Below are positions 19,596-36,013 of a DNA stretch of 64,000 nt, piece after piece. The number at the start of each line of letters is the position of its first letter. Positions within the stretch are counted from its first letter, which is position 1. The translations under genes were made by a program, and so were the position numbers. This DNA is from Blautia sp. Its GTDB lineage: Bacteria > Bacillota > Clostridia > Lachnospirales > Lachnospiraceae. A model generated the notes under the pieces. The model made no database searches. It saw only the letters and a list, made by a program, of their open reading frames with translations, and was not told the DNA's origin. The DNA is taken from assembly GCA_047014865.1 (NCBI GenBank), contig JBKXQO010000001.1, positions 4,089-68,088 of the forward strand. The letters run 5' to 3'.

Positions 19596-20270
19596 TTAAA
19601 GCGCTTTTTTCTCCTGACACAGGGGCAAGATCTCTCCCAGGCTCTCGATCACTTCCACATCAGAATACTGCGTCTGCCGGGTCCGCTGAATCAAGATGGG
19701 GCGTATCCCCGCGACCTGGGCGCCTCTCACATCTGACACATAGGAGTCCCCCACGTGGATCACTTCCCCCGCCTTACACCCGCTGACTTCCAAAGCCTTC
19801 TCAAACAACTCTCTGTGCGGTTTATAGGCGCGAACCATATCCGCACAGACAATACCGGCTGGAGAGAGATTTTTCTCTTCCATGCTTCGTCCCACATACT
19901 GTACCCCATTGTTGCTGATCATATAGATCGGACAGGGACAGTGGACAAACAGCTCCCTGGCATCTGGAAACAGTGGAGCTCTCACCCAGAACTGCTGAAT
20001 CAAACGGTGAAGTTCCGCCAAGTTCTCCCGCAGGTGAACCGTCTCCACCAGATATTGCAAAGCCCGGTCCACAATCTCATCTTCTGTGAGGTAAGTATCC
20101 CCGTAACTGGACTCCTCATACCCTTTTACCAGCTTCCACCAAAGCGCCATCACTTTTCTGGGATCTCGCAGGTCGCTGTTTTGGCAAATCCTCATCACCG
20201 TCTCCTTAATCTCCGCGCCACTCTCCTGCACCACCGTCCCCGTATAATCTAGAAATACTGCCTTTATCAT
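19596..20270 (-). CDS. HAD family hydrolase
   Basis: FLDYTGT, ISN, YKP, HVGDS motifs. Confidence 0.88.
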   Translation of the reverse strand: MIKAVFLDYTGTVVQESGAEIKETVMRICQNSDLRDPRKVMALWWKLVKGYEESSYGDTYLTEDEIVDRALQYLVETVHLRENLAELHRLIQQFWVRAPLFPDARELFVHCPCPIYMISNNGVQYVGRSMEEKNLSPAGIVCADMVRAYKPHRELFEKALEVSGCKAGEVIHVGDSYVSDVRGAQVAGIRPILIQRTRQTQYSDVEVIESLGEILPLCQEKKAL

Positions 20271-20377
20271 CTATTTTCATCCTCTCCACCAAGAAATAAC
20301 TTATCGATGAAACAGCCCTATTCTACCACAGATTCCAGGGATGCTTCCAGTTTTTTCTGCCAGATGCGAAAAAGACG

Positions 20378-22012: not shown

Positions 22013-22291
22013 AGATCTGCGTATCCTTTCCCGATATTCCTTTTAGATATCTTATTCAAAGATACTGGTCTAAACTTAACTATACTTAAAATTTTCCACG
22101 GTTCAATGTTTTTTCACATTTTCACTGCTGATAGCCATACTTAGGTACCTAAGCGCCCTCCCAACCCAAAATCACACACGTCAACATGACAAAGACTTTC
22201 CTGTAACACAAAAAGAATGTGCCCCAGCACATTCCCGCGCCGGGCGCGGTCGCTTGAGACACTCTTCATCCTCGCCTATTCTCAATTCCAA

Positions 22292-22747
22292 TCAAATCCG
22301 TCTGCTGCGCTCCCCCGTGGCGATCCTCCAACACATACGGAACACAATGGTAGTCACCATGATCCCCGCCGACATGCTTGTGGCGAACAACAGGGCATAG
22401 ATACTTTCCCGGCCGAAACCGTCCAGTTGCCGGTCCATCAAATGTTTCATTCCCCGGTAGAGTGCCGCCCCTGGCACCAGTGGAATCGCTCCAGAGACCA
22501 GAAAGACCGTCACCGGCGTCTTCTGAATCCGTGCCATCCACTCCGCATAGACAGTCAACATAACAGAAGCCGCAAAGCCGCAGACATAATCATTGGCCTG
22601 GAAACATCCTCTCACGGCTAGAAAAACCGCCCAGCCGAGGAATCCGCCCAGAGCCGCCAAAAACGCCTTCTCCCGCCGAATATTAAACAGTAAAGCAAAC
22701 CCCAGAGAACCTGTGAATGCTGTGAGTAGCTGAACCATCTGTGCCAT
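22292..22747 (-). CDS. Threonine/serine exporter family (ThrE_2) small subunit
   Basis: Hydrophobic, GFALLFN and IPLVPG motifs. Confidence 0.82.
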   Translation of the reverse strand: MAQMVQLLTAFTGSLGFALLFNIRREKAFLAALGGFLGWAVFLAVRGCFQANDYVCGFAASVMLTVYAEWMARIQKTPVTVFLVSGAIPLVPGAALYRGMKHLMDRQLDGFGRESIYALLFATSMSAGIMVTTIVFRMCWRIATGERSRRI

Positions 22748-22762
22748 CTCATTCTCCCCATA

Positions 22763-23554
22763 TTAGAACAAAAAATTTGTGAAAGTAAAGCCCACAGCGA
22801 TGGCAATCGCCAACACGACAGACTCCAAAAAACGCACCCCTCCTGTGATCATATCCCGGGAGAAGATATCCCGGATTGCATTGGTGAACGCCATCCCTGG
22901 GATCAACAACATGACATTGCCAATACTGATCAAATCTGCATTGTCCCCAGCCCCAGCCAAGACGGCCAGGTTAGACAACAGCCCTCCCACCACCGCGCAC
23001 AACAAACTGGTGATCATCGGGTTGGAGCTTCCCCTGGCAAAACAGGAATCTGCCAACTTTAGGACCACCCCGATCAAGGCCGACACGATCATATCCTTAA
23101 GAGTCCCTCCGAAAAACACGCAGAAAGAGCCGGAGATCAGCGCATAGGTCAGTAACTGTACTCCGTAGGAGTACAGAGGTTCCCCGGCGATTCTGTCCAG
23201 CTCTCTGCGAATCTCAGAGCTCTCTGGCTTTTGCTCACAGATTTTTCTGGAGAGTTGATTCAATTCGTCCAGCATATGAAGGTTATTCTTCAACCCCGGA
23301 ATTCGCCTGCTCTGCGTACAGGAATAGAATTCTCCCCAGTATACAGTGGTGACAATACTGGCAGAGATAGACAGCACGTCTGCCCTCCTGGCTCCATAGG
23401 CCTCACAGATACGCCGGACCGTGTCTTCCACCCTGCCGGCCTCAGCGCCACTGATCAACATCTTCTCTCCAATCTCCATAGCGTAGTAGAGATACTCCTC
23501 CACCTTTTCTCTCTCTCCGTCCCCGGCGTTCTCCACGGTTCTAGTCTCACACAT
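22763..23554 (-). CDS. Threonine/serine exporter family (ThrE) protein
   Basis: GEKMLISGAEAGRVEDT, LLIPGMAFTNAIRD motifs. Confidence 0.85.
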   Translation of the reverse strand: MCETRTVENAGDGEREKVEEYLYYAMEIGEKMLISGAEAGRVEDTVRRICEAYGARRADVLSISASIVTTVYWGEFYSCTQSRRIPGLKNNLHMLDELNQLSRKICEQKPESSEIRRELDRIAGEPLYSYGVQLLTYALISGSFCVFFGGTLKDMIVSALIGVVLKLADSCFARGSSNPMITSLLCAVVGGLLSNLAVLAGAGDNADLISIGNVMLLIPGMAFTNAIRDIFSRDMITGGVRFLESVVLAIAIAVGFTFTNFLF

Positions 23555-23575
23555 TCTATCTGTCCCTCGCGCTCT

Positions 23576-23944
23576 CTATCCGGCTATCCCATAGCCATTT
23601 CCCTGCAGAGCTTCGATGGCCCTGTCAAAATTTTCTTCTTTCGTGAATATATAATCTGTATTGTAAGTTGAGACGGCAAACACCCCAATCCTATGTTCAG
23701 CCAAGATAGAAGTGATCTCCGACAAAATCCCCACCAACGAAAAATCCAGACTTCCCTGCACACGAAACCCTCTCCAACCATGGTCGCATTCCGTGGCGTT
23801 GCCAGGTACTTTCTGTGTGGCGCACACCAGAGAATTCTCCTCCTCCGTCTTACCCACAAAACAATACGTATCCTTCCAATCCACCTGGGATAAATCTTTT
23901 AATTTACATATGGAGAACTGCTCCTCTATCCTCTGGATCTTCAT
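23576..23944 (-). CDS. ACT domain protein (DUF2241/CASTOR-like)
   Basis: EENSLVC, GSLDFSLVGIL, FAVSTYNTDYIF. Confidence 0.82.
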   Translation of the reverse strand: MKIQRIEEQFSICKLKDLSQVDWKDTYCFVGKTEEENSLVCATQKVPGNATECDHGWRGFRVQGSLDFSLVGILSEITSILAEHRIGVFAVSTYNTDYIFTKEENFDRAIEALQGNGYGIAG

Positions 23945-24069
23945 CTCTTCCTCCTGTTCTGCCCAATCGGACATGAAAACTGCTGCTCAATCTCGTTACC
24001 CATACGTTACCATTCTAACGATGGCAGATCAGAATGTCAACAGAGGATATCCGCGCACGGCGCTCTTTC

Positions 24070-24402
24070 TCAGAAGACCACCGTCAGCATCATCTTAAAG
24101 TTCTCCTTACCCTGGACCGCATGGGGATGTCGCGCCGGCATGACAATGGAATCTCCTTCCTTCAACTCATACTCTACTCCGTCGATGGTGATCAGACCCA
24201 CGCCGTCCAGACACACCACCATGGCGTCCCCCTCCGACTCATGGGTGCTGATCTCCTCCCCCTTCGCAAAAGAGAACAAGGTGACGCTGACCGCCTTATT
24301 TTGTACCAAGGTCTTACTGACCACTTGTCCTTCCTGATAAGCTACTTCCTCTTTGAGTCTCAACACTTCCGATTTCCTGATGTTTTTCATAATTCCATCC
24401 AT
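24070..24402 (-). CDS. Cupin domain protein
   Basis: VTLFSFAKGEEISTHESEGDA...MPARHPHAV; AGGAGG RBS upstream. Confidence 0.88.
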   Translation of the reverse strand: MDGIMKNIRKSEVLRLKEEVAYQEGQVVSKTLVQNKAVSVTLFSFAKGEEISTHESEGDAMVVCLDGVGLITIDGVEYELKEGDSIVMPARHPHAVQGKENFKMMLTVVF

Positions 24403-24464
24403 TCTTACATCCTCCTGTTATTAATTTTCAACTTACTCTTATATTCTACCAAAAACTCCTGGTC

Positions 24465-24477
24465 TATTCTGTAACAA
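24465..24477 (+). repeat. att core, left (TATTCTGTAACAA)
   Basis: Identical 13-mer at 33156-33168; host-type genes lie outside both copies. Confidence 0.8.
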
Positions 24478-24577
24478 GTTTAACTTACATCGTTTTCTGT
24501 AACATCAGCTATTTTCCTCATATAAAACGCTGCATTCCATATCATTTTTTGCTTATTATCCTATCTGTACATACTTT

Positions 24578-24595
24578 CAGTCCCATCTTAGTACC
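24578..24595 (+). repeat. Putative integrase arm-type site (CAGTCCCATCTTAGTACC)
   Basis: 15/18 match to TAGTACCATTTTAGTACC at 33076-33093. Confidence 0.55.
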
Positions 24596-25448
24596 ACCCC
24601 AAAGCCTCTCTTTCCACAGCACTGTACCACGTCCGTTTAAAGCTCTCCAGCCCTACATGGCGAATGGGCGCCGCTGCTAGGTACTGGTCATAATACTGCT
24701 TATACTGATACCTGTGCACCCTCTGCCTGAGAGTCCTCATCGCTTTCTTATCAAGCTGGCGAACATACTCCGTACTTACTCTCAGGTCTTCCCCCACCTC
24801 TTTCAGTGTCTTCTCCTCCTGATAGCGCATCCGGACAACCGTGGGCAGATTATCCGGCAATTCATCCACTGATCTCCACAGTTCTTCTTTCATTCGCTCC
24901 CTATCCAGGCGTTCAATAGCCTCTTCCTCCAAGTCTTCCTCTGAGGCTATGCTCTCCTCCAAGGTCAGATTCTCAGTACCTGGCAGAGGCTCGCTCAGGC
25001 TCTGTATTTGCCCCATTCTGGCCGTTTCTCTTAGCTTTTCGACCTTTCTCCTACCCACGCATAGAAGCCCACACATTTCCCTATCAGAGGGCTCATAGCC
25101 ATATCTCTTTATGAAATCATCCCTGGTCTTCCTGTACTGCCTTACTTCGTCATTCAGATAAGAAGGCAGCCTTATAGATCTGTCCTGCTCCATATACCGC
25201 CGCATCCTTGTCTTGATCCAGAACGCCGCATAGTTGATAAAAGGTACACCTCTAACGGCGTCATAGCCCCTCACGGCATCACACAGAGCCAGATATCCCT
25301 CCTGCTTTAAATCATCAAGTTCCTCCTGGCCGGAATAAATCATGGCCAGCTTCCCAATAAACCCCTGGTTCTGCTGCCAAAGTAAACGCATATTTTCCGC
25401 TTCGTCTATGCCATCCTGAATCAGGACTACAAGCTGCTCATTCGTCAT
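24588..25448 (-). CDS. Sigma-70 family RNA polymerase sigma factor (element-encoded)
   Basis: Region 2 DDLKQEGYLAL..AV..YD..RGVPFINYAAFWIK; region 3 SLSEP; region 4 KTLKEVGEDLRVSTEYVRQLDKKAMRTLR. Confidence 0.88.
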   Translation of the reverse strand: MTNEQLVVLIQDGIDEAENMRLLWQQNQGFIGKLAMIYSGQEELDDLKQEGYLALCDAVRGYDAVRGVPFINYAAFWIKTRMRRYMEQDRSIRLPSYLNDEVRQYRKTRDDFIKRYGYEPSDREMCGLLCVGRRKVEKLRETARMGQIQSLSEPLPGTENLTLEESIASEEDLEEEAIERLDRERMKEELWRSVDELPDNLPTVVRMRYQEEKTLKEVGEDLRVSTEYVRQLDKKAMRTLRQRVHRYQYKQYYDQYLAAAPIRHVGLESFKRTWYSAVEREALGWY

Positions 25449-25529
25449 AATGCCACCTCTTATCCTATCCCATTTATAAGAAAATCAGGCCCCATACCCC
25501 CCTTCTGGAAGCACAGGGCCCGTTGTCAG

Positions 25530-26393
25530 TTACTCACTGTCTGGCAAAGCCTGATAATAGATTGCTTTCGCTTTATTCTCCAGCACAAACGCATCATAGA
25601 CAATGCGCCCCTCTACCAATGACCCACTAAGGCCTGGTGGATTCTGATGTGTTTTATAGCTCTCCAACTTGGTAGGTGCGACTGTCGCACAAGGATGGAC
25701 AACCATAAAACCAAATTTCTCCGGCAGACGTTTAGCAGACACTTTGAGTACGTCCAGTCCGTCCAGATTCCCAACAAAGCCAACACTCCGTTTACCTTCA
25801 TCTAGTACCGCGCGGACCATATCCTGATATCTCCCTGCGCTATCCTTACTAGTCTTCATCAGAAGCAAAGTCTCCGGTGTTATGACTAAAATCCGTCCAG
25901 TCTCTGGTACATCTGCATTATCCAGAGCCGTGTTCGCTGTAAAAATCTCATCGTAGATATTGGAGGAAGTCAATTCTTTTTCTGCCGGCTTATTCCCCGC
26001 CCCTTCACAGATTTTCCCTAATACATAAGTATCTACCTCTGGGATCACCACTTCTCTCATCTGTCTGCTCAATGCAGTGGCCGCTTCCAGCTGGCCCTCG
26101 GTCTCCTCCGTGTCAAGCGTATCAATCGCAAAGGTAAAAGAACGGTCTTGGGACAGCTCTTTTCGTTCTGTCGTCGCGTTCAGCGCCTCTACCGCTCCAT
26201 AGCGTGACCAATTTCCCTCAGTGGCTCCGGTACGACCATAATCGTTCATTTTTCCGGTACTGATCTTATAGATCTTCACGGAGTGCGCACCAGAAAATGA
26301 AAAATCCTGATTTGTAAGATATTCTTTTTTACTCTCCTGTGTGAACTGTTCATCCACATAAGGGAGATATTTCTCAACTAACTCTATTGCCAT
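25530..26393 (-). CDS. Phage major capsid protein (Firmicute siphophage type)
   Basis: MAIELVEKY..YVDEQF, DRSFTFAID, VVIPEVDTY, LDNADVPETGR, NPPGLSGSLVEGRIVYDAFVL resemble this capsid family from recall; directly downstream of the scaffold gene. Confidence 0.78.
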   Translation of the reverse strand: MAIELVEKYLPYVDEQFTQESKKEYLTNQDFSFSGAHSVKIYKISTGKMNDYGRTGATEGNWSRYGAVEALNATTERKELSQDRSFTFAIDTLDTEETEGQLEAATALSRQMREVVIPEVDTYVLGKICEGAGNKPAEKELTSSNIYDEIFTANTALDNADVPETGRILVITPETLLLMKTSKDSAGRYQDMVRAVLDEGKRSVGFVGNLDGLDVLKVSAKRLPEKFGFMVVHPCATVAPTKLESYKTHQNPPGLSGSLVEGRIVYDAFVLENKAKAIYYQALPDSE

Positions 26394-26396
26394 CTA

Positions 26397-26858
26397 TCAT
26401 CTTCCTTTCAGACCCATCGCTTTCCTGATCTCATCGCTTCCAGCTTCCCCGCCCGTTGCCGATGAAGGTCCTGAGTTGCTGAGACTCCCGTTGAGAAGCC
26501 GGTAGGGTCTAAGATTAGAACCTTTGAAATAGGTGCTGATGAGCTCTATACTCTCTTCCATTTCTTCTTTATTTCCACATTTCACCAAGGGCAGCAGCTC
26601 TTTCGGTATTTTCTCATCTGCCAGCCTTTCCCTGGCATCCAGATGAAGCTCCCGCTCATTTAACGCCTGCTCCCGTTTGTCATGTTCAGAAGTATCCGGC
26701 AGATTTTTGGCCCTTGCGAGCCGCTCCCTGACGATCTTATTCACTTCCTCCTGGGTGAACAGTTTTTCCTCCGGCTGCTGGGTAGCGCCCTGCTGGCCGC
26801 TTGGTTCCTGCTGCTGTTCCTGTGCCATGTTCTGGCCTTCCACACTCTGATGCTCCAT
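26397..26858 (-). CDS. Capsid scaffolding protein (DUF4355-like)
   Basis: Low-complexity Q/E N-terminus followed by KLFTQEEVNKIVRERLAR; coiled-coil; precedes the capsid gene. Confidence 0.78.
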   Translation of the reverse strand: MEHQSVEGQNMAQEQQQEPSGQQGATQQPEEKLFTQEEVNKIVRERLARAKNLPDTSEHDKREQALNERELHLDARERLADEKIPKELLPLVKCGNKEEMEESIELISTYFKGSNLRPYRLLNGSLSNSGPSSATGGEAGSDEIRKAMGLKGR

Positions 26859-26925
26859 GTGTATCTCCTTTCCCCGTTTATCGCCCGGTCGGCTATATAA
26901 ATACAATGAGGATATTCAGACAAAT

Positions 26926-26984
26926 AAAAAAAAGGCGCAGGAATAACTTCTAGACATTTCTGTCTGTAAGTTATTTCCCACGCC
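26926..26984 (-). terminator. Long hairpin + U8 in the leader of the scaffold-capsid-sigma operon
   Basis: Minus strand GGCGUGGGAAAUAACUUACAGACA-GAAA-UGUCUAGAAGUUAUUCCUGCGCC-U8; G:U pairs only on the minus strand. Confidence 0.7.
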
Positions 26985-27059
26985 ATTCTCTCAAAGGCTT
27001 CCAGCGCTGGCAGTATTTAGCACTGGGGTACTTCTCAATATTCTATTTGACTCGAGATA

Positions 27060-27088
27060 ATTATACCAAACATGGGAGGGGTACGCAA
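27060..27088 (-). promoter_or_regulatory. SigA-type promoter TTGCGT-N17-TATAAT (extended TG) for the capsid operon
   Basis: Exact 17-nt spacer, TGnTATAAT. Confidence 0.65.
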
Positions 27089-27104
27089 CCCCGGAATCTT
27101 TTCT

Positions 27105-27314
27105 TTATACGGGTTTCCGAACCCCCTCCCCTTTACTAATTGCTGCTAAAACTCTAGTTTTCCCTAGTAATTCATGCCCTGAATGAGCCGCCATGGCTTT
27201 ATCTATTCTGCTTTTGATTTCAGGTTTTCTCAGGTTCTCCTCACCGACCGAATAGGCCGTCTGAGGGGAATAACCGGCTCTGATGGCAGCCTTATTGCTC
27301 CTTTGCTTCATCAA
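27105..27314 (-). pseudogene. terS: Terminase small subunit remnant
   Basis: AAIRAGYSPQTAYSVGEENLRKPEIKSRID is the TerS HTH motif. Only 69 aa, with no normal N-terminus or C-terminal oligomerisation part. Confidence 0.65.
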
Positions 27315-27427
27315 TAAATGCTTCCATCATCTTTGTAAGTTGTGTTCCCATCGCAACACCTTTTTACAGAAAAAACACCCCGTATTTCTACAGGGTGCCC
27401 CAGTAAATCCTTTTATTATTTGTGTAA

Positions 27428-27610
27428 TTATCTACTCAATTCCCTTGATTTCAACCATACATACGCCCTCTTATATTTGCCCTGCTGATTCTTAGATACC
27501 TTGCAGACCTTCACGGTATCCCCCAGGATTTCCAATACCAGATCCAAGTCCTCTTGTGTCTGGTAAGATACTCTTAGCCTTACGGGTAGTTTCTCAATCT
27601 TATCACTCAT
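27428..27610 (-). CDS. Small hypothetical protein (60 aa)
   Basis: GGAGG RBS; ATGA overlap with upstream ORF. Confidence 0.6.
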   Translation of the reverse strand: MSDKIEKLPVRLRVSYQTQEDLDLVLEILGDTVKVCKVSKNQQGKYKRAYVWLKSRELSR

Positions 27611-27726
27611 CTGATTACCTCCATGTACATTCTATGCACTATATGAAATATCAACTTTAGAGCTCTTCCATCAATTATCTCGTCAATCATTTTTTTAATA
27701 CAATCCCTGTACTCTTCTTTACTCAT
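27607..27726 (-). CDS. Small hypothetical protein (39 aa, MSKEEYRDCIKKMIDEII...)
   Basis: Below ORF-track cutoff; AAGGAAG RBS; stop overlaps the next ATG. Confidence 0.55.
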   Translation of the reverse strand: MSKEEYRDCIKKMIDEIIDGRALKLIFHIVHRMYMEVIR

Positions 27727-27747
27727 CTTACTCTTCCTTTCCGCTAA

Positions 27748-27776
27748 TTTACTTTTAATTAAAACTATGGTACTAT
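27748..27776 (+). promoter_or_regulatory. Promoter TTTACT-N17-TACTAT (extended TG) for a counter-oriented sRNA
   Basis: 17-nt spacer; directly precedes a structured non-coding unit that ends in a terminator. Confidence 0.55.
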
Positions 27777-27781
27777 GTACC

Positions 27782-27856
27782 TGTCTCCTTTTTAAAGCCG
27801 CCCAGCTTTTCGGAGATAGACAGCCCTGTAGGTATTTATCTATAGGGCCTTTTTTT
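27782..27856 (+). ncRNA. Putative ~75-nt regulatory sRNA with CGCCCA loop
   Basis: Promoter, AAAGC-CGCCCA-GCUUU hairpin, terminator GCCCUGUAGGU-AUUU-AUCUAUAGGGC-C-U7 with G:U pairs favouring the + strand. Confidence 0.6.
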
Positions 27857-27858
27857 GG

Positions 27859-28029
27859 TTACTTGTACCTTAACATTTCCTCGATAGAGTCCAGCATAAA
27901 GACTTTCAGCATCTCAATGCCTTGGTTCCGATCAAAGCCATAGAGCCGCAATATTTCAAGCCTATGGTTCTGCTGCGTAATCCAGTTTTTTAACAGCTTG
28001 TCCTTTTCTTCCTGTGATATCTGGTACAT
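27859..28029 (-). CDS. Small hypothetical protein (56 aa, MYQISQEEKDKLL...)
   Basis: GGAGG RBS; TAATG coupling to upstream ORF. Confidence 0.6.
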   Translation of the reverse strand: MYQISQEEKDKLLKNWITQQNHRLEILRLYGFDRNQGIEMLKVFMLDSIEEMLRYK

Positions 28030-28172
28030 TATTTTCTCCTCCCTTTTTTCTTTGACTTTATGAACTGAAACATTTTAGCCTGAATTCTGGCTTTCTCCAT
28101 TGGGAGCTCTATGCAACCATCCTCTTTTATGACACGAAACCCGTTTTCACTGCCTGTCTTACTTTTGCTCAT
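28029..28172 (-). CDS. Small basic hypothetical protein (47 aa, MSKSKTGSENG...)
   Basis: GGAGGTG RBS; coupled to the downstream ORF. Confidence 0.55.
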   Translation of the reverse strand: MSKSKTGSENGFRVIKEDGCIELPMEKARIQAKMFQFIKSKKKGRRK

Positions 28173-28178
28173 TTTGGA

Positions 28179-28448
28179 TCACCTCCTCAGTTTATTTATG
28201 CTTTTCTGTGATACATTAAAAAATATTTTTACATAGTGTTCATCACAGTAAGAACAATCTCCAAAATATCCGCATCTTGCCATAGCCTGTTTAAATTCTT
28301 CATGCGTTACGTCTGGAATATCTCTTTGTACAAGTCGCAGCAAAAACACAGAATTACAATCATTCCGGATATTTTTTGATGGTGAGAATTTCTTGTCAAT
28401 CCAGTTACATATCATAAGCTGTCTATCAACCACTTTACTAAAGGTCAT
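28179..28448 (-). CDS. Hypothetical protein (89 aa) downstream of the replicase
   Basis: AGGAG RBS; ORF track. Confidence 0.6.
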   Translation of the reverse strand: MTFSKVVDRQLMICNWIDKKFSPSKNIRNDCNSVFLLRLVQRDIPDVTHEEFKQAMARCGYFGDCSYCDEHYVKIFFNVSQKSINKLRR

Positions 28449-28476
28449 TGTCTCACTCCTATACTGGTAAATAATA

Positions 28477-28525
28477 TTTCTTTCATTTCTTTTGTTTCGG
28501 TGGAAATGAAAGAAACAAAAGAAAC
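28477..28525. repeat. Iteron-like inverted/direct repeats, candidate replication origin
   Basis: TTTCTTTCATTTCTTTTGTTTC-GGTG-GAAATGAAAGAAACAAAAGAAAC, immediately after the replicase stop. Confidence 0.5.
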
Positions 28526-28545
28526 GTTTGTTATGTGTTTAAGTC

Positions 28546-30405
28546 TTATAAAAATGGGTTTTCGGATTCAAAAACATGAATACAGGCTGCCGTGCCTTTG
28601 CTGATTTCTGAATGGTGAATAGCGTCGTATTCCTCCAGGTCCAGCAGTAACGCTTTAATCTGGTTCCCAACTTTCTGAGAAGTGCCATATATCCGGCATC
28701 CCTTGAAGTATTGGCTGCTCTCTATAATATCCTTTACCCGGCCTTTCCACTTACCCTTGCCCTGGTCTACAAGGTGCCTTATAGTATTCACTATAGGGTC
28801 ACGGTCATAAGCCTGACGCTTTCTTGTCTCTTCTACGGCTGCGGCATCACCTAAATTCTCCCACTTAACACCATTGCGTTTCAGCTTATAACTACTGTCT
28901 ATGAGCGTCCTTCCTGTTATTGCAAGGGTGGCTTCTTTGTCCTCTCGCTTCTCTTTGTAGAGAACCCATACAAAATCACTTACACCGATGATCGCAGTAG
29001 ATCCTAAAAGATTACTGAACGGGTCTGTAGGGTCAACAAATTTCCTATCATGGTATATGGGCATGATGCACACGCCAAAACGGTCTGCAATCTGTTTGAG
29101 CTTTGTCAGAATTTCATAATCTGCTTCATAGTCCGTTTGGTTGAGCTGTTTCCCTCTTTTTACTTTCTGGAACACATCAATAACGACCATTTTTACATCC
29201 GGGTTCCCTTCCAGGAAACTACATAAATCTTCTTCAAATCCTTCACCCATTAAATTAAAATCGTGAGCAAAGCATAAATTATGCGGCGGTTCTCTCCCGT
29301 CCAATATCGCTCTCAATCTATCCTGTGTTAGAGATGGAGTATTCTCAAGATCCACATATAGGACACCACATTTCTTCGTAGTAAACCCCAGAAACTTATC
29401 TCCACACGCCAGATCGACACTTAATTGTAGCGCAAGCCAGCTCTTACCCAATTTCGACTTAGCGGACAGCCCCCCTAATCCTTTTGTTAAAATTCCTTCT
29501 ACAAGGTGTATAATAGGTGGCAGATCGGCTGTCATTAAAGCATCCGCCCCAGTATAATTGATTGTCTTTTTTTCTGTCTTCTGCCGGAACTTACCATTAT
29601 CGTACACCGCCGTATATGACTTTTCCGTTTTCCAGCCCCGTTTCAACGCAGGAAACACTGTCTTTTCAAGTTCCTGGTCAGTGAGCGGTGGAACGCACTT
29701 CTTGTCATTTTCTGCCCGGATTGCTGCCTTGATTGCTTCATCATCAAGCCCCTTTGCTTTTAAGCTACCAATCAGCTTAATCATAGCGTTTGTCCGTTCC
29801 CCTTCGGAGATTGTCTCCGGCATCTGAAAAAGTTCCTGCCTTTCTGGAACTGATCCCATGAGAAAATTTGCCACTCTGCCATCTACCTGGGCAATCTCAC
29901 AATCTCCCGGCCCCTGCTCCCATTCATACTGACGCCCATTTGGGTGTATGCTTGGCGGAGCCACTATGTACCCGCCCTCTCCACGGATATCAACCCCCTC
30001 ATAAAGCCCGACACGGTTCCGATTCACGGCACTATCCCTGTATAAAAGATGATAGCCGCCCCGGCCTGTGACACTTGTCCATGTGTCAGGAAGCTCCCCA
30101 TTCTCCCTCTGCCAGTCCCTTAAAACATCGTAGCCATCAATCCCCTTGTCCTTATCTACATCCAGATCAATAACCACCAGGCCGTTAGATTTGCCCCCTG
30201 TAGCGATTCCAATATTGTACTGGGGATTAATCCCCCACCAGTCTTCTATCTGCTGTAAATCAGTGGTAGCGGCCTTACAGCCATTTTCTGTTGCTGGGCG
30301 CTTGTCTTGCGGCTTCAGGGGAAACACAGATAAGCCCCAATGGGCGTATCTCAACGCCCAATCTCTCAGTGTCTCCAGCTTACTCACCTGCCTTAACGCC
30401 GCCAT
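28546..30405 (-). CDS. Bifunctional primase-polymerase (Prim-Pol) + PriCT + RecA-like AAA helicase
   Basis: VFPL..K.P, NIGIATG, VIDLD, TGRGGYHL, DIRGEGGYIVAPPSIH; ERTN..PPL..EL; AKSKLGKS Walker A, VVIDVFQ. Confidence 0.88.
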   Translation of the reverse strand: MAALRQVSKLETLRDWALRYAHWGLSVFPLKPQDKRPATENGCKAATTDLQQIEDWWGINPQYNIGIATGGKSNGLVVIDLDVDKDKGIDGYDVLRDWQRENGELPDTWTSVTGRGGYHLLYRDSAVNRNRVGLYEGVDIRGEGGYIVAPPSIHPNGRQYEWEQGPGDCEIAQVDGRVANFLMGSVPERQELFQMPETISEGERTNAMIKLIGSLKAKGLDDEAIKAAIRAENDKKCVPPLTDQELEKTVFPALKRGWKTEKSYTAVYDNGKFRQKTEKKTINYTGADALMTADLPPIIHLVEGILTKGLGGLSAKSKLGKSWLALQLSVDLACGDKFLGFTTKKCGVLYVDLENTPSLTQDRLRAILDGREPPHNLCFAHDFNLMGEGFEEDLCSFLEGNPDVKMVVIDVFQKVKRGKQLNQTDYEADYEILTKLKQIADRFGVCIMPIYHDRKFVDPTDPFSNLLGSTAIIGVSDFVWVLYKEKREDKEATLAITGRTLIDSSYKLKRNGVKWENLGDAAAVEETRKRQAYDRDPIVNTIRHLVDQGKGKWKGRVKDIIESSQYFKGCRIYGTSQKVGNQIKALLLDLEEYDAIHHSEISKGTAACIHVFESENPFL

Positions 30406-30571
30406 AGCAGCATTTCTCCTCGAAATAGGCCCTATTCACCTTCCCAGCTATGGTTATGTACCCCTGTGCCTTTAACCGCCCATTCAGCTCCCGGATCACC
30501 TCATAGGCCTTCCCCTCACTCACTCCAAGGGCCTCTTGCACTTCCTTTACCGTTACAAATTGCTTATTCAT
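30380..30571 (-). CDS. xis: Excisionase-like HTH protein
   Basis: FVTVKEVQEALGVSEGKAYEVIRELN..L...GYITIAGKV, typical of Firmicute ICE/prophage Xis. Confidence 0.72.
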   Translation of the reverse strand: MNKQFVTVKEVQEALGVSEGKAYEVIRELNGRLKAQGYITIAGKVNRAYFEEKCCYGGVKAGE

Positions 30572-30588
30572 TGGCTCCTCCTTTCCCA

Positions 30589-30801
30589 TTAGGCAAAGAT
30601 AATCTTGTGACTTGGTTCTTCTATCCCCTTGTATTTCACAACACAGCAGAATCCATAATCATAATAGACCGCTGGTACTTCTGCGCTTGCAGATCTGCTA
30701 ATCTTAATTTCTGTCACATAATCTACTCCTACGGTGTGCGCTTTCTCAATTAACGCCGCAACCTCATAAGACTTCGTTAAATATACCTTGTATCCTTCCA
30801 T
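30589..30801 (-). CDS. Hypothetical protein (MEGYKVYLTKS..., 70 aa)
   Basis: AGGAGG RBS at 30809-30814; between cro and xis. Confidence 0.6.
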   Translation of the reverse strand: MEGYKVYLTKSYEVAALIEKAHTVGVDYVTEIKISRSASAEVPAVYYDYGFCCVVKYKGIEEPSHKIIFA

Positions 30802-30821
30802 TGTTCTTCCTCCTTTTCTTC

Positions 30822-30840
30822 TCATCCATGCCGCCCAGCA
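30822..30840 (+). repeat. 19-bp repeat copy 1 (TCATCCATGCCGCCCAGCA)
   Basis: Identical to 31973-31991. Confidence 0.85.
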
Positions 30841-30846
30841 TAGAGA

Positions 30847-31056
30847 TTATTCTTCTGTTTCGATGATCTCAGTTACATCAACGCCGAGAGCTTTCGCGAT
30901 CTTTCCGACAGTTAATGGCTTGCAAGTTTTTTTAGTAAGTACATTAGCTAAAGATGTTTTTGGCATGGCTGCTTTTTTTGCTAATCCTTCTGTAGAAAGA
31001 CAGTTCCTTGCCATAGATAGCTCAATCTTTTCTTTGCTTATCCTCAATATGCTCAC
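30847..31056 (-). CDS. Cro-like XRE HTH protein
   Basis: Short HTH (LAKKAAMPKTSLANV...KIAKALGVDVTEII), divergent from the repressor. Confidence 0.8.
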   Translation of the reverse strand: MSILRISKEKIELSMARNCLSTEGLAKKAAMPKTSLANVLTKKTCKPLTVGKIAKALGVDVTEIIETEE

Positions 31057-31066
31057 CTCTTTTCAA

Positions 31067-31141
31067 ACAGTATTTTTACTGTTTTTCACAATATATCACA
31101 GCATTATTATTGTGTCAATATAAAAACAGTTTTTTTATTGT
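31067..31141. promoter_or_regulatory. Genetic switch: three 16-bp operators and leftward promoter TTGACA-N17-TATATT
   Basis: ACAGTATTTTTACTGT (31067-82), ACAGCATTATTATTGT (31098-113), ACAGTTTTTTTATTGT (31126-141); -35 at 31113-118, -10 at 31090-95 on the minus strand. Confidence 0.7.
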
Positions 31142-31190
31142 GTTTCTGTACATAATATGATAAAGTAATTGCAATGGAGGTATACAGGAT

Positions 31191-31640
31191 ATGACATTTG
31201 GTGAAAGAGTAAAAGAATTACGCTTAAAAAAAGGACTTACTCAACGTGAACTTGGTGAAAGAATGGGGGGAATAACCCAACAAACTATTGCACAATATGA
31301 AAAAATAGTTGAACAACCCAAATTAGTTACCATTCGCAAAATAGCAAATGCTCTTGATGTAAAATTGTATGAACTGGTGATAGACTGGTCACAATTTTCC
31401 CCTGAAGAATTAAAAGAAGATTTTACCAATACTGACGGAAATTTCTACGGAAAAGAAGCATCCCCTGAAGAACAGCAAAAATTCATGGATCGTTTGTTTA
31501 ATGGCAAAAACGAGGCTTCCAACAAAAGAAAAGCCTTAGATAAAAAAATAGATCAGTTTAATGATGATGGAATACAGAAGATTTCTGATTATGCAGATGA
31601 TATAATGAAAATCCCCGAATACCGCAAAGACACCGAATAA
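31191..31640 (+). CDS. XRE-family (CI/Stl-like) repressor
   Basis: MTFGERVKELRLKKGLTQRELGERMGGITQQTIAQYE HTH. Confidence 0.88.
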   Translation: MTFGERVKELRLKKGLTQRELGERMGGITQQTIAQYEKIVEQPKLVTIRKIANALDVKLYELVIDWSQFSPEELKEDFTNTDGNFYGKEASPEEQQKFMDRLFNGKNEASNKRKALDKKIDQFNDDGIQKISDYADDIMKIPEYRKDTE

Positions 31641-31663
31641 GGTCGTGAATCACGACCTTATTC
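31635..31663. repeat. Perfect 14-bp inverted repeat at the repressor stop
   Basis: GAATAAGGTCGTGA-A-TCACGACCTTATTC. Confidence 0.7.
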
Positions 31664-31752
31664 CGCACCTTGACAATATAATATACTTACCCAGGGAACC
31701 GATGGGGCGACTACACCAGTCACCGGAATACAAATGAAGGGAGCTGGTGCCA

Positions 31753-31839
31753 ATGATTACAGTGTCGGAATTATTCCAGTTTGTAACCATGCTTTGTGCA
31801 GTGATAACTCTTGTTATTTACATATCACGCAAAAAGTAG
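31753..31839 (+). CDS. Type I toxin, holin-like single-TM peptide (MITVSELFQFVTMLCAVITLVIYISRKK)
   Basis: 28 aa, GAAGGGAG RBS, hydrophobic helix with basic C-terminus; convergent antisense promoter. Confidence 0.75.
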   Translation: MITVSELFQFVTMLCAVITLVIYISRKK

Positions 31840-31925
31840 CGCCCTCGGTCTGGTAAACTAAGGCGCTACTTTAGCAAATTACTTTACCGGCGACTAGGTG
31901 TGTTCTAGTCATCGGTTCTCTTGTT
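31830..31925 (-). ncRNA. Putative antisense antitoxin RNA
   Basis: Consensus TTGACA-N17-TATAAT on the minus strand (31960-31932); hairpin AAAGUAGCGCC...GGCGCUACUUUUU overlapping the toxin stop. Confidence 0.65.
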
Positions 31926-31960
31926 AAGTATATTATATGTCAATAAAAAACTATTGTCAA

Positions 31961-32006
31961 ATACCTTTCTCTTCATCCATGCCGCCCAGCAAGAAAGGAA
32001 GGGTAT
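31961..32006 (+). promoter_or_regulatory. RBS-sequestering hairpin in the integrase leader; its loop holds repeat copy 2 (31973-31991)
   Basis: AUACCUUUCU-c-UUC pairs with GAA-a-GGAAGGGUAU just before ATG 32008. Confidence 0.55.
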
Positions 32007-32007
32007 T

Positions 32008-33078
32008 ATGCCAGTATTTAAAGACGAACAACGGGGAACTTACTTTGTAAAATGCTACTACACAGACCACACCGGAACCCGGAAACAGAAAAAGAAACGG
32101 GGCTTTAAACTCCAGAGGGACGCCAAAGAATGGGAAAGGAATTTTCTGGAGACTCAACAGGCTGACCTTAATATATCCTTTGAATCCTTTGTAAAAATCT
32201 ATAATGAGGACATGAAGCACCGCCTCAGGGAGCATACCTTTATTCAGAAGCAGTATGTCATAAACAAGAAGCTGCTGCCTTTCTTTGGAAAACTCCCAGT
32301 GTCGCAGATCACCCCGGCTCATGTGCGGAAATGGCAAAATGCATTGATCGCCTACCGGGATGAAAAAGACAAGCCCTATTCTGAAACCTATCTACGGACA
32401 ATTAACAACCAACTTTCCGCCATCATGAATTACGCTGTCCGGTACTACGATTTAAAAGATAACCCATGCCGCAAAGCCGGGAGCATAGGAAAAGGCCATG
32501 CGGATGAAATGCAGTTCTGGACTACGGACGAATTTAAGCGGTTCCTTGAAAAGATCTCTGATAAACCAGCCTCAAGAGCCGGATTTCTCATTCTGTATTA
32601 TACGGGCTTACGCATAGGAGAACTATTAGCCCTAGAATATGCCGATATAGATTTTAAAAGCTGCACAATCAACATAAATAAATCCTACCAGCATATCAAC
32701 GGAAAGGACGTTGTAACGCCGCCTAAAACGCCCAAGAGCGTCCGTATTGTGTCTATCCCGGAATTTCTACGGGACGAGATTAAAAGCTATACAGAACGGC
32801 TCTACGGCCTCCATAAGCATGACCGGATTTTCCCATACACAAAACACTTTTTCGAACGTGAAATGATACGAGGAACCAAGGATGGGGAAATAAAGCGGAT
32901 CCGGCTCCACGACATTCGTCACAGCCATGCCAGCCTGTTGATTGAGATGGAATTCTCTGCCCTATCTGTTGCCGACCGCCTGGGGCATGAGAAAGTAGAA
33001 ACCACTCTCAATACCTATTCCCATCTGTTTCCCCACAAGCGGGATGAAGTGGCCGAAAAGCTCCAAAAATTAAAATAG
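32008..33078 (+). CDS. int: Tyrosine recombinase / site-specific integrase
   Basis: Arm-binding N-terminus (KQKKKRGFKLQRDAKEWE); YTGLRIGELLAL, PKT, HDIRHSHAS, LGH, TYSH catalytic motifs. Confidence 0.95.
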   Translation: MPVFKDEQRGTYFVKCYYTDHTGTRKQKKKRGFKLQRDAKEWERNFLETQQADLNISFESFVKIYNEDMKHRLREHTFIQKQYVINKKLLPFFGKLPVSQITPAHVRKWQNALIAYRDEKDKPYSETYLRTINNQLSAIMNYAVRYYDLKDNPCRKAGSIGKGHADEMQFWTTDEFKRFLEKISDKPASRAGFLILYYTGLRIGELLALEYADIDFKSCTININKSYQHINGKDVVTPPKTPKSVRIVSIPEFLRDEIKSYTERLYGLHKHDRIFPYTKHFFEREMIRGTKDGEIKRIRLHDIRHSHASLLIEMEFSALSVADRLGHEKVETTLNTYSHLFPHKRDEVAEKLQKLK

Positions 33079-33093
33079 TACCATTTTAGTACC
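33076..33093 (+). repeat. Putative integrase arm-type site (TAGTACCATTTTAGTACC)
   Basis: Internal TAGTACC tandem; near match at 24578-24595. Confidence 0.55.
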
Positions 33094-33155
33094 GCAAGCA
33101 TAAAGAAAAAGCCGATTTTCCTTGTAAATTCAAGGTTTCTCGGCTCTTTTCTATT

Positions 33156-33168
33156 TATTCTGTAACAA
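33156..33168 (+). repeat. att core, right (TATTCTGTAACAA)
   Basis: Identical to 24465-24477; ~80 bp downstream of int. Confidence 0.8.
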
Positions 33169-33176
33169 TCGTTACA
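33161..33176. promoter_or_regulatory. CRP/FNR-like palindrome TGTAAC-AATC-GTTACA overlapping the att core
   Basis: TGTAA-N6-TTACA, same geometry as the CRP box. Confidence 0.55.
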
Positions 33177-33200
33177 TTTCGACTAAAATAGTCTTCTTTC

Positions 33201-33229
33201 TTGACGGCTCTAATAAATTTGATTATAAT
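33201..33229 (+). promoter_or_regulatory. SigA promoter TTGACG-N17-TATAAT
   Basis: Near-consensus, upstream of the Acr3-like gene. Confidence 0.7.
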
Positions 33230-33257
33230 CACACTATCAAACCTAGGAGGATCTCCC

Positions 33258-34208
33258 ATGAACTTGACCACGAAACTACAACCTATCTTCATTCTATCTG
33301 CGGCAGCCCTGGGCCTTCTGCTGGGATATCTAACTCAGTTTGGCGTTTTTTCCCTACAACTGATCGAACCCTTTTTGATGATCCTGCTGTACTTCGTATT
33401 TCTCTCTGTAGACGGCACAAAGTTCAAGCGTTCCTTTCTGAATCTAAAATTCACAGCCACGGCAGTTCTCGTGAACTTCGTTTGGACTCCCATATTCACC
33501 TATCTTCTGGGATTGTTATTCTTTCGCGGTGTGATCGATCTGCAGATGGGATTGATGATGTTGATGGTGACTCCCTGTACAGATTGGTACATTGTATTTA
33601 CCGGCTTATCCAAAGGCAATGTAGAATTGGGAGCCTCCCTTCTCCCGCTGAACCTTTTGCTTCAGATTTTGCTGCTCCCCGTCTACTTATTACTCTTCTT
33701 TGGAGGGACTGTCCACTTCCAGATAAATGCAATCCTGGCCAGCATCATAACCGTCCTGCTAATTCCATTCCTGCTCTCCTTTTTTACCAAGTATCTGGAG
33801 ACCCATTTTTCTTCCTGGACAAGCCTGGGGCAGCGGTTGAGATCCCGGGGAGACGACGCACAGCTACTTTTTCTGTGCCTGGCTGTGATCTCCATGTTCG
33901 CCTCAGAGAGCAGAGAGCTATTCAACCACCCACTGCTACTGCTAAAAATGCTTCTTCCATTGTTGCTATTTTTCACAGTCAACTTTATTTTTGTGCAGGC
34001 CATCGGCAGACGGCTGAGATTTCCCACGGCCGACACCGTCGCCCTGAATTTTACCACCCTGGCCAGAAATTCTCCGCTCTCCCTGGCCATCGCTGTGGCT
34101 GCTTTTCCCGACAGGCCATTGATCTCCCTGGCTTTAGTCATAGGCCCCCTAATTGAACTTCCCGTGTTATCCGTGATCTCCAGCATCCTGTTAAGGCGTC
34201 AAAACTGA
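33258..34208 (+). CDS. Acr3/BART-superfamily transporter (arsenic resistance protein-like)
   Basis: VNFVWTP, TPCTDW, ARNSPL, GPLIELP motifs. Confidence 0.82.
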   Translation: MNLTTKLQPIFILSAAALGLLLGYLTQFGVFSLQLIEPFLMILLYFVFLSVDGTKFKRSFLNLKFTATAVLVNFVWTPIFTYLLGLLFFRGVIDLQMGLMMLMVTPCTDWYIVFTGLSKGNVELGASLLPLNLLLQILLLPVYLLLFFGGTVHFQINAILASIITVLLIPFLLSFFTKYLETHFSSWTSLGQRLRSRGDDAQLLFLCLAVISMFASESRELFNHPLLLLKMLLPLLLFFTVNFIFVQAIGRRLRFPTADTVALNFTTLARNSPLSLAIAVAAFPDRPLISLALVIGPLIELPVLSVISSILLRRQN

Positions 34209-34262
34209 GAAGCCGTTCTCTCACCAGACACCCGCTCAGCCACCAAAAAGGAGGACTCAAAT

Positions 34263-35948
34263 ATGAATCGATCTTTCCGCAGAAAACTTGAAAACCTTCT
34301 GATTATCCTTATCGCCGCCGCGTCACTGGCTTTACTCATCCTAAGTTTTCTTCCGTCACTGCAAGTATCCGGCCGTATACAAATTTTCCTGGAGATGGGA
34401 AAAATGGTACAGAGAGTCTTCTCCATCGTGCTCTTTGTCCTCTCCTTCCAGCTTATGCGGAGAAAACAGGTCGCCTGGTGGATAGCCGTGTTCCTCTTCA
34501 TATTAAACTTTCTCCGCAGTCTGGCCGGACTCCCCCATCTCTATGCCGTTGTATTGATGGACGTAGATCTCCTTGTCCTGGCGATGCTTGTCTGGTTCCG
34601 CAAGGATTTCTGCTGCCCCACCTCCAGAACTTCTAAGAAAAAATCCATTTTCTTCCTATTGTTAGCTCTTTCCGGAATCGTGGCCAACGCCGGAATCAGC
34701 TACCACTACCTGCGCTTGGGAACGGAAGGCTCAGGCGTCTCTTTCTGGGAAAGCCTTTCCTACGGAGCTGGGATGATCTTCGGAATAAAAACCCCTCTCC
34801 TCCTCGGTCACGGCGCACAGCGCGTGGAAAATTTTGTCTTCTGGTTTAGCTGGGCTTGTATTCTAGCCGCTCTCTTCCACGCCGCGCGCCCATGGATCGA
34901 CACGCGCCTCCATGGAAAATCCGATCTGCACCATGCCAGAACTCTGCTGAACTTATACGGCCAAAACCCCTGTTCTTACCTGGCCTTAGAGGCTGACAAA
35001 CAATTGTACTTTGGCAATCACACCGACGGAGTCGTCCCCTATGGCACCGTAGGTAGCACGATCATTGTAAACGGAGACCCCATCTGCGCGGATAATGATT
35101 TTCCCTCCCTACTGGCCGAGTTCCGGGAATTCTGCCAAAAGAGCGCTCACGATCTGTTCATTCTCAATGTAACCGATCACTATCTGGACGAATATCAACG
35201 ACAGGGTTTTGGATATGTCAAATGTGGAGAAGAAGCCCGGTTTGACCTGTCCGAATACGAGATATCCGGCAAAAAAGGCGCTAAGATGCGTATGAATATC
35301 AACCACGCCACCAAAGCCGGAGTCACCGTCCACGAATACTGTGTATCGAAACAGAGAAACCCCGAACTGGAAAAAGAATTTGACCGAATCACAGAAGAAT
35401 GGCTAAGAGAGAAAAAAAGTTCTCTGCTCCAATTCACTCTGGGAGGCGTAGGTCTTGACACTCCCATGGATAAGCGGTATTTCTACGGGACCAATGCCGA
35501 AGGCCAAATGGTGGGCTTCATCGTCTTCGTCCCGTTTCTGGGTAAGAAAGGATACATGGCCGATGTGACCAGACATGGCGCCAACGCCCCCAGTGGAGTC
35601 ATGGAGACTATCATCTACCAGGCATTTCAGCAGTTCAAAGAAGAAGGCGTCCAGTACGGAAGCCTGGGCGTAGCCCCTTTGGCCGGACTGGAGCAAGATA
35701 CCCCCAACTTGGTGGAAAAGTTACTCCGGTTCGTCTACAATAATTTAAACGGGTGTTATGGCTTCCGCGATCTCTACCGGGCGAAAGCCAAGTACAGTCC
35801 CACCCAGTGGCTTCCCTCCTACTACGCCTACCTGCCCAAGATTCCCACCCCAAAGATGTTCTACGCCATCATAAAAATTCAAAATCCCAAGGGAATCCTG
35901 GACTACGTCAAAGGTTTCCTAAAAGGAAAAAGAAACGGGAGAAAATAG
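34263..35948 (+). CDS. Aminoacyl-phosphatidylglycerol synthase (MprF C-terminal/DUF2156 domain)
   Basis: ~6 TM plus GDPIC, GEEARFDL, SLGVAPLAG, YGFRDLYRAKAKY.P.W motifs. Confidence 0.82.
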   Translation: MNRSFRRKLENLLIILIAAASLALLILSFLPSLQVSGRIQIFLEMGKMVQRVFSIVLFVLSFQLMRRKQVAWWIAVFLFILNFLRSLAGLPHLYAVVLMDVDLLVLAMLVWFRKDFCCPTSRTSKKKSIFFLLLALSGIVANAGISYHYLRLGTEGSGVSFWESLSYGAGMIFGIKTPLLLGHGAQRVENFVFWFSWACILAALFHAARPWIDTRLHGKSDLHHARTLLNLYGQNPCSYLALEADKQLYFGNHTDGVVPYGTVGSTIIVNGDPICADNDFPSLLAEFREFCQKSAHDLFILNVTDHYLDEYQRQGFGYVKCGEEARFDLSEYEISGKKGAKMRMNINHATKAGVTVHEYCVSKQRNPELEKEFDRITEEWLREKKSSLLQFTLGGVGLDTPMDKRYFYGTNAEGQMVGFIVFVPFLGKKGYMADVTRHGANAPSGVMETIIYQAFQQFKEEGVQYGSLGVAPLAGLEQDTPNLVEKLLRFVYNNLNGCYGFRDLYRAKAKYSPTQWLPSYYAYLPKIPTPKMFYAIIKIQNPKGILDYVKGFLKGKRNGRK

Positions 35949-36013
35949 AAGTCTCAACCTTCCATTTATCACGCTTTTGCGGCAAAAGAAATTTACCGAA
36001 ATTTCTGTTTACT

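Follow-up and report, generated by a model that had tools for sequence, protein, structure and literature searches.

The CI RNA of satellite P4 and the c4 RNA of phages P1 and P7 are small antisense RNAs that act away from their own gene on split sites of the early transcript and keep replication or antirepressor genes off. In plasmids, the loops of complementary hairpins meet and the duplex then spreads, as for CopA/CopT of R1, RNA I/RNA II of ColE1, RNAIII of pIP501 and the pT181 RNAs; these counter-transcripts are short, constitutively made antisense RNAs that end at an intrinsic terminator, are encoded in cis and overlap their targets. Leaders that hide their Shine-Dalgarno (SD) sequence can be freed by another RNA pairing to the 5′ arm (DsrA and RprA on rpoS, S. 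aureus RNAIII on hla), and in par of pAD1 (RNA I/RNA II) direct repeats read from opposite strands yield RNAs that pair in trans. The lambda OOP and P22 sar RNAs act on the overlapping transcript only and have no distant complementary hairpin. To our knowledge, only a few systems, all of them Gram-negative (such as P4, P1 and lambda), offer a well worked-out case of RNA deciding whether an element stays integrated or excises. For P4, the part of PMC4825925 concerned with the CI RNA describes it as processed from an untranslated transcript and as causing termination by pairing with seqA and seqC, which lie upstream and downstream of it. Here we analyse a small-RNA unit hosted by a 7.7-kb island of a Lachnospiraceae genome, which lies in a 64,000-nt stretch of DNA from Blautia sp. 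(the window, in whose positions all coordinates are given).

Our main reading, to which we assign a probability of about 0.6, is that the unit would encode a genuine counter-transcribed small RNA, and that its hairpin SL1 and the leader of the integrase (int) message would both pair with an element of the early transcript just downstream of cro, damping early expression. In the sequence comparisons, the complementarity among these three RNAs co-varies, and the antisense control proposed here for a mobile element includes the int leader as a third partner that had not been expected. The unit and its target on the early transcript are made up as follows.

27748-27776, + strand: small-RNA promoter of the extended -10 type, with a -35-like hexamer at 27748-27753, TG at 27768-27769 and the -10 hexamer at 27771-27776; the spacing between the hexamers is 17 nt

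27784-27856, + strand: predicted small RNA of about 73 nt, with the start placed from the -10 and the end at the U7 run

27782-27818, + strand: SL1, with a lower stem (27782-27788/27812-27818), an upper stem (27794-27798/27805-27809) and a 6-nt C-rich loop (27799-27804)

27785-27792, + strand: pyrimidine (anti-SD) stretch in the 5′ arm of SL1, the exact complement of 30810-30817

27823-27856, + strand: intrinsic terminator, an 11-bp hairpin (27823-27848) followed by T7 (27850-27856)

30826-30843, - strand: post-cro hairpin of the early transcript, with a 6-nt G-rich loop (30832-30837), starting 4 nt past the cro stop (fold -9.9 kcal/mol, z -2.4)

30589-30817, - strand: 70-amino-acid (aa) open reading frame (ORF), the first after the post-cro hairpin, with its SD at 30808-30817 and ATG at 30801

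A preliminary description of this DNA had proposed a promoter, a hairpin and a U7 terminator on the + strand, and every coordinate and motif was found where it had placed them, the promoter being better termed an extended -10. Two hairpins form in the predicted fold of the 76-nt RNA, which has an energy of -28.3 kcal/mol, compared with -14.9 +/- 2.9 kcal/mol for shuffled sequences (z -4.68; none of 200 shuffles equalled it), and the lower stem of SL1 contains one G.U pair that would be a C.A mismatch if read from the other strand. The unit is present in one copy in the whole genome and is convergent to the early genes, so placed that it is antisense to the intergenic stretch of any early-to-capsid read-through. 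Rfam holds no family for it: a cmscan search of 20000-36000 with E-values up to 1 returned three sub-threshold matches only, none of them C4 and one of them overlapping the unit (LhrA, 20 bits), and at the gathering threshold 11 related loci gave only an FMN riboswitch and a tRNA.

The -10 of the small RNA is overlapped by a 13-nt near-perfect palindrome (27769-27781), which may be a protein site controlling the small RNA; an 18-nt block related to it is kept in two relatives (L003 and L005) although their cro genes differ. An attenuator on the early strand at 27769-27781, suggested by a small hairpin and a U-rich tract, was dropped because it is not conserved in L003 or L005.

Relatives of the unit were gathered in four ways, namely through the helicase domain, with R1 (a covariance model of the 3′ domain, which matches the window at 27810-27856 with 40.4 bits), by running R1 against 151 relatives and by running it against 136 genomes of the genus. 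In the helicase-linked relatives, the unit occupies the same site, downstream of the helicase gene, on the counter strand and between the replication and capsid modules. Their shared parts are an extended -10, then a 5′ part that varies, in most cases a small hairpin of the UNCG type, and a terminator hairpin with a T-run. The TGn plus -10 block and the terminator with its T-run are kept in position while the body of the unit diverges, and the UNCG-type hairpin, which is meaningful on the + strand only, occurs in most units. Units found with R1 only show the same parts.

An alignment of 10 distinct units had 95.7% of its cells paired, a value that fell to 32-50% when the partners were slid. 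In nine of the 12 terminator pairs both partners vary, and none of 500 shuffles of these 10 units reached the covariation score. G.U pairs numbered 15 on the counter (+) strand against one A.C, the equivalent of a G.U on the other strand, and some of these cells are common to close relatives, so that the independent events are fewer. Because of the covariation, the G.U excess, the T-run and the promoter, we assign a functional RNA to the + strand of the window, as judged from the alignment. A separate small-RNA unit on this strand, as the preliminary description had it, is thereby upheld, and the unit shows what is expected of a trans-acting small RNA: its own promoter and terminator, and a structure conserved on the transcribed strand.

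R1 matched in 32 genomes of the 151 relatives (E-values up to 1e-3) and in 29 of the 136 genomes of the genus (E-values up to 1e-4). Of the 29 loci inspected from the scan of 151 relatives, 12 read by eye as terminators of the T-box type or ordinary ones, to which R1 responds as well; these genome tallies are therefore upper bounds, and the same holds for the resulting estimate, false positives included, that the unit family occurs in about a fifth of the genomes of the genus. The cross-matched terminators that follow T-box-like leaders are those of L208, L213-L215, L218, L219, L222 and L225, and counting the family with R1 calls for filtering by context. At the DNA level, a BLAST search of 401 genomes of the family with the unit returned itself and a 34-nt match in G173, which lies in apparent coding sequence and was taken as chance. 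In IMG/VR, a scan based on the helicase found no relative and an alignment-based scan found one, which carries no unit; further loci from DNA patterns (5 and 115+) were also taken as chance, since none of the 85 scanned matched R1.

The terminator loop is itself conserved in the family as a UUGGCG-like hexamer with close variants (L004, L010, L015, L016, L003, L005, L196 and others), which the window unit has lost; it carries a 4-nt loop instead. When the loci of SL1-less units were searched for a trans target of this loop, only L016 gave a match, of 10 nt in the late region, and no target recurred from unit to unit. At a distance of about 0.5 kb, the late region of L016 (2513-2522) and of L019 (about 2520-2545) has a further hairpin, on the small-RNA strand, that repeats the loop of the small-RNA terminator; in the late mRNA, its sequence complements the terminator loop over 10 nt. 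In L067 (G045), R1 scores 26 bits at a second site (9324-9372), which is 2 kb past the first unit, has an extended -10 of its own and may belong to a neighbouring element.

The preliminary description had proposed that the SL1 loop and a hairpin after cro are exactly complementary, and this proved correct: the 10-mer at 27797-27806 complements minus-strand 30830-30839, the top of the post-cro hairpin, at every position. Its further proposal that 27785-27792 complements the SD region at 30810-30817 was confirmed as well. With up to one mismatch allowed, the 10-mer has 6 matches in the window compared with 2.7 expected, and 4 of 100 shuffles reach 6, so that its length by itself lacks significance. 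What goes beyond chance is that the match joins two hairpin loops, that only 1 of 300 SL1 shuffles attains its cofold gain of -19.2 kcal/mol, and that the relation returns with different letters in three other elements. SL1 occurs in five of about 40 units (window, L018, L019, G425 and G587), always with the same architecture and with other letters. In all four of these for which the cro region is available, the longest exact complement in the locus is the post-cro hairpin, 6-10 nt after the cro stop. The four compare as follows.

Window: complement of 10 nt; cofold gain -19.2 kcal/mol; 1 of 300 SL1 shuffles as good

L018: complement of 15 nt (next best 9); cofold gain -18.4 kcal/mol; 0 of 200 SL1 shuffles as good

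G425: complement of 11 nt; cofold gain -15.2 kcal/mol; 2 of 200 SL1 shuffles as good

G587: complement of 10 nt, plus 9 nt just past the hairpin; cofold gain -13.9 kcal/mol; 1 of 200 SL1 shuffles as good

The SL1 loops of these four units fall into three sequence types whose differences are compensatory; for the window and L018, a single substitution plus a single inserted base in each of the two partners offset each other. The co-conservation of the two loops across homologous elements, which the preliminary description had named as a test of its proposal, was thus found in four of four units. The fifth, L019, carries the core 10-mer of the window in its SL1, and its contig ends without cro. 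Among SL1-less units with a mapped cro, none of four matched the post-cro hairpin. For the window, co-folding predicts that SL1 and the early leader form a duplex in three segments that covers the SD at 30808-30817, with a 10-bp segment lying on this SD of the first post-cro gene; for L018, too, the SD of that gene is predicted to be covered. In the locus of G587 (L255), about 130 nt with a terminator-like hairpin inside are found at 5040-5150, between the post-cro hairpin and the next gene, a stretch that has no counterpart in the window.

A third copy of the 10-mer is located on the same strand at 31981-31990, within the int leader, and the top direct-repeat family of the island consists of three copies, at 27782-27807, 30815-30840 and 31966-31991. 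The two long copies belong to the following features.

30815-30840, - strand: 26-nt early-leader element, which complements the int leader at 24 of 26 positions and SL1 in part

31964-32010, + strand: int leader, with a pyrimidine stretch (31964-31970), the 26-nt element (31966-31991), the SD (31992-32003) and the ATG at 32008

The 19-nt core has no occurrence anywhere in the genome outside the early-leader and int-leader sites. A near-perfect complement of 23-31 nt between the int leader and the early leader, placed just 5′ of the int SD, was present in 10 of 36 loci (window, L004, L010, L011, L012, L013, L066, L226, L227 and L255), some of the 36 being too short to include int, and these ten represent seven unrelated sequence types. 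Loci without this relation had best direct repeats of 11-19 nt, save for an unrelated 28/32 repeat in L232. Counted by eye, mismatches between the two long copies were mostly transitions (16 of 19, with 3 transversions); 9 were compatible with G.U and 7 gave A.C, and there was no preference for wobble pairs.

On its own, the int leader of the window folds at -16.8 kcal/mol (z -2.8) with the SD paired. In all seven types, the leader alone is predicted to pair its 5′ pyrimidine stretch, where the repeat starts, with the SD, so that 5-9 of the 10 nt of the SD window are paired and a small C-rich apical loop sits on top. In the predicted heteroduplex with the early leader, 0-5 of the 10 SD nt are paired in all seven types, at a free-energy gain (ddG) of -28 to -35 kcal/mol; in the window, the gain is -29 to -33 kcal/mol and the number of paired SD bases falls from 9 to 3 of 10. 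SL1 and the int leader are built alike, from an arm of pyrimidines, an arm of purines and a C-rich apical loop between them, and the loop is the same. Both complement one stretch of the early transcript, the G-rich hairpin together with the purine tract located between cro and the 70-aa ORF. From these comparisons, SL1 looks like a shortened mimic of the int leader. The wider match of the post-cro element to the int leader suggests that it has a role in integrase control, instead of or besides one in xis and replication.

Several points weigh against our main reading. In the window, no more than 10 nt match exactly, a length at chance level, and in 14 further units lacking SL1 the longest exact complement to the unit's own locus of about 9.5 kb is 9-12 nt. 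By plain duplex energy, the post-cro site ranks about 14th among the windows of the early transcript, in RNAduplex scans that gave long loopy hybrids everywhere and no discrimination of the site. G425 and G587 are of one sequence type, which leaves three independent types instead of four. Given that SL1 occurs in so few units, and that SL1-less units show no trans target in their own loci, pairing with the post-cro element would be an add-on and cannot be the general role of the family. The bipartite pairing with the ribosome-binding site (RBS) that the preliminary description had drawn stands in the window and in L018, where the anti-SD segment lies clearly on the SD, is ambiguous in G425, and fails in G587; there, the second segment pairs with bases immediately past the hairpin, about 130 nt short of the next gene. 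On the integrase side, the 5′ end of the int message is assumed and the leader is predicted, the int region of L018 lies off its contig, and the SD of the early gene is covered in only some of the heteroduplexes, the paired positions changing from 0, 4, 3, 4, 0, 3 and 0 to 8, 5, 4, 7, 2, 5 and 0 of 10.

The preliminary description had regarded the unit as an immunity RNA that silences xis and replication. The pairing behind that proposal is backed by comparison; silencing and immunity by the small RNA are effects that we infer from the sequence, and the int-leader partner had been missed. In its strictest form, in which a P4/P1-style RNA serves solely to shut off the early xis and replication genes through the post-cro RBS and the int-leader copy is irrelevant, this explanation appears unlikely. 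It would account for the 10-bp segment that co-folding puts on the first post-cro SD in the window, and likewise in L018, and because the downstream ORFs overlap, translational coupling is plausible. However, the complement of the int leader is longer (24/26 compared with 10 + 8 nt) and far more widespread (seven types compared with three) and lies within a conserved SD-sequestering fold, and the second segment of G587 is off the SD. Because a cI-like protein repressor gene is present, the RNA need not be the immunity factor. A counter-transcript acting only in cis, which would pair perfectly or collide with read-through into the capsid module (by OOP-like cleavage or transcriptional interference) and whose SL1 match would be a by-product of duplication, fits the junction position and convergent orientation that are the conserved feature of the helicase-linked relatives, the absence of SL1 from most units, and the hairpin without a T-run on the early strand, which makes read-through likely. 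We nevertheless rate it as quite unlikely as the whole explanation: it leaves unexplained why SL1 loops of three types track the post-cro hairpin of their own element and why SL1 has the architecture of the int leader. The partner that the comparisons support does not overlap the small RNA and lies 3 kb away. Because most units are without SL1, a cis role may be the ancestral function of the family, which is compatible with pairing to the post-cro element as proposed here.

Since the three copies repeat in the same orientation on one strand of the DNA, a protein could in principle read them, and they might be sites for an element-specific protein (the cro-like, HTH_17 or 70-aa protein) with the RNA structures being incidental. 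One copy lies in the int leader/promoter region and one just downstream of the small-RNA start, typical places for roadblock operators, and several small helix-turn-helix (HTH) proteins are encoded nearby. We give this explanation little credence, since the sites span 23-31 bp without a common dyad and differ wholly between elements, the post-cro copy adjoins no recognisable promoter, and the anti-SD segment and the DNA repeat lack collinearity (gaps of 4 and 12 nt). Moreover, the copy in the small RNA has only the loop core in common while each copy keeps its own stems, and the int copy always sits in an SD-hiding fold (7/7). That there is no functional unit at all, and that promoter and terminator motifs and a 10-nt match came together by chance in an intergenic spacer, is scarcely credible. 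The region is AT-rich and has an excess of promoter-like (39 compared with 18.8 expected) and terminator-like sequences (19 compared with 8.9 expected), and the 10-nt match is at chance level; however, chance explains neither the covariation, the strand-specific G.U excess and the covariance-model matches in relatives, nor the recurrence of the loop match at the homologous place in other elements.

Under our main reading of a small RNA and an int leader that pair with the same early element, the genes downstream of the target are of interest:

30380-30589, - strand: HTH_17 excisionase-like gene, downstream of the post-cro target; its start is overlapped by the stop of the 70-aa ORF

28546-30405, - strand: prim-pol/helicase gene, which overlaps the HTH_17 ORF and is followed by several tiny ORFs

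By comparison with relatives, transcription of the small RNA would start at an extended -10 promoter of its own and stop at the U7 run. The SL1 loop would then kiss the loop of the post-cro hairpin, a step that the covariation supports, and the duplex would spread, in the window in the three co-fold-predicted segments over the SD of the 70-aa gene. Translation of this gene would presumably be blocked and, via the overlapping ORFs, so would that of the excisionase-like and prim-pol/helicase genes. At the same time, the early-leader element would be kept from the int leader, whose pairing with it would open the SD-hiding helix. The small RNA would in this way damp leaky early expression and set the threshold of the switch.

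We offer a more far-reaching version only tentatively. In it, the post-cro hairpin would be a riboregulator on the early mRNA that opens the SD helix of int, so that Int would be made only upon early transcription (at entry or induction). The SL1 mimic would soak up stray early transcripts and here would also block the first early gene, which would amount to an RNA-only licensing of excision and integration across satellites of gut Lachnospiraceae. A literature search found nothing describing this arrangement. If the reading is true, a satellite family of gut Firmicutes would be using a distant counter-transcribed small RNA, Int synthesis would be coupled to early transcription by a contact between two mRNAs, the early operon and the int leader, and an mRNA leader would have its imitation in a small RNA. 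The natural variants, with three or more loop sequences, are a ready series of compensatory mutants, and the unit would define a small-RNA family that is absent from Rfam.

The remaining genes of the island are the following.

25530-26393, - strand: major head protein gene, with a scaffold protein and a TerS-like fragment, beyond the small-RNA region

30847-31056, - strand: cro-like HTH gene (weak HTH_26 match, PHROG repressor families)

31118-31090, - strand: early promoter upstream of cro (matches 11/12, plus TG)

31191-31640, + strand: cI-like HTH_3 repressor gene, divergent from cro (Pfam and PHROG matches)

32008 (ATG)-33078, + strand: tyrosine integrase gene (Pfam Phage_integrase, Arm-DNA-bind_4 and SAM-like domains; phrog_1)

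The 70-aa ORF matched nothing in Pfam or PHROG. Within 25530-33078 (less than 10 kb), the island combines int, a cI/cro switch, a primase-type replicase and a few capsid/packaging genes, with no tail or lysis genes. Judged by gene content alone, it is a phage satellite of the capsid-encoding kind (PICI or capsid-forming PICI, family names that follow the relevant part of PMC10085698).

Just past the strong terminator after the head gene lies a sigma-70 family gene (24588-25448; regions 2 and 4; phrog_351), a homolog of which adjoins int in L004; it may be cargo of the element, a sign of tandem elements or the host gene of the attachment site. Between the cI-like gene and int, 31671-31960 contains a likely type I toxin-antitoxin module. 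It comprises a 28-aa hydrophobic ORF (31753-31839, + strand) with an RBS and a hairpin terminator, and a perfect sigma-70 promoter (31960-31932, minus strand, 12/12) aimed back into the 3′ end of this ORF. The two promoter-plus-5′ regions form a 42-nt inverted repeat, Rfam gives a weak sub-threshold BsrG match (E 0.19), and the promoter block is kept beside int in L004, L010, L011 and G425.

Compared with the described systems, the window unit resembles the P4 CI and P1 c4 RNAs in that it is predicted to be a small antisense RNA acting at a distance on split early sites, and to this extent the analogy drawn in the preliminary description is apt. It does not extend to membership of their family, for which there is no Rfam match and the layout differs. 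This RNA differs from CI and c4 in being encoded on the opposite strand, 3 kb away from its target, with a promoter and a terminator of its own instead of being cut out of the target transcript. It has no Rfam C4 match; the host belongs to the Firmicutes, the element also encodes a protein repressor, and the target has a second partner in the int leader. The two hairpins of L018, which are fully complementary over 15 nt, are like those of plasmid counter-transcripts, whereas in the window the partner is 3 kb away and the match comprises only the loop plus adjacent bases. As with lambda OOP and P22 sar, we find a short counter-transcribed RNA in a regulatory region with its own promoter and terminator, but the window unit has a distant complementary hairpin as its partner, the one after cro. 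The direct repeats of the island, read from opposite strands, give complementary RNA segments as in par of pAD1; unlike in that type I toxin-antitoxin system of convergent, overlapping genes, the partners here are the early operon, the int message and a distant small RNA. Finally, the co-folds predict a freed int SD in all seven types, as in activation by DsrA, RprA and RNAIII, with the difference that the activator would here be a segment of the early mRNA and not a dedicated small RNA, and that the small RNA would mimic the target.

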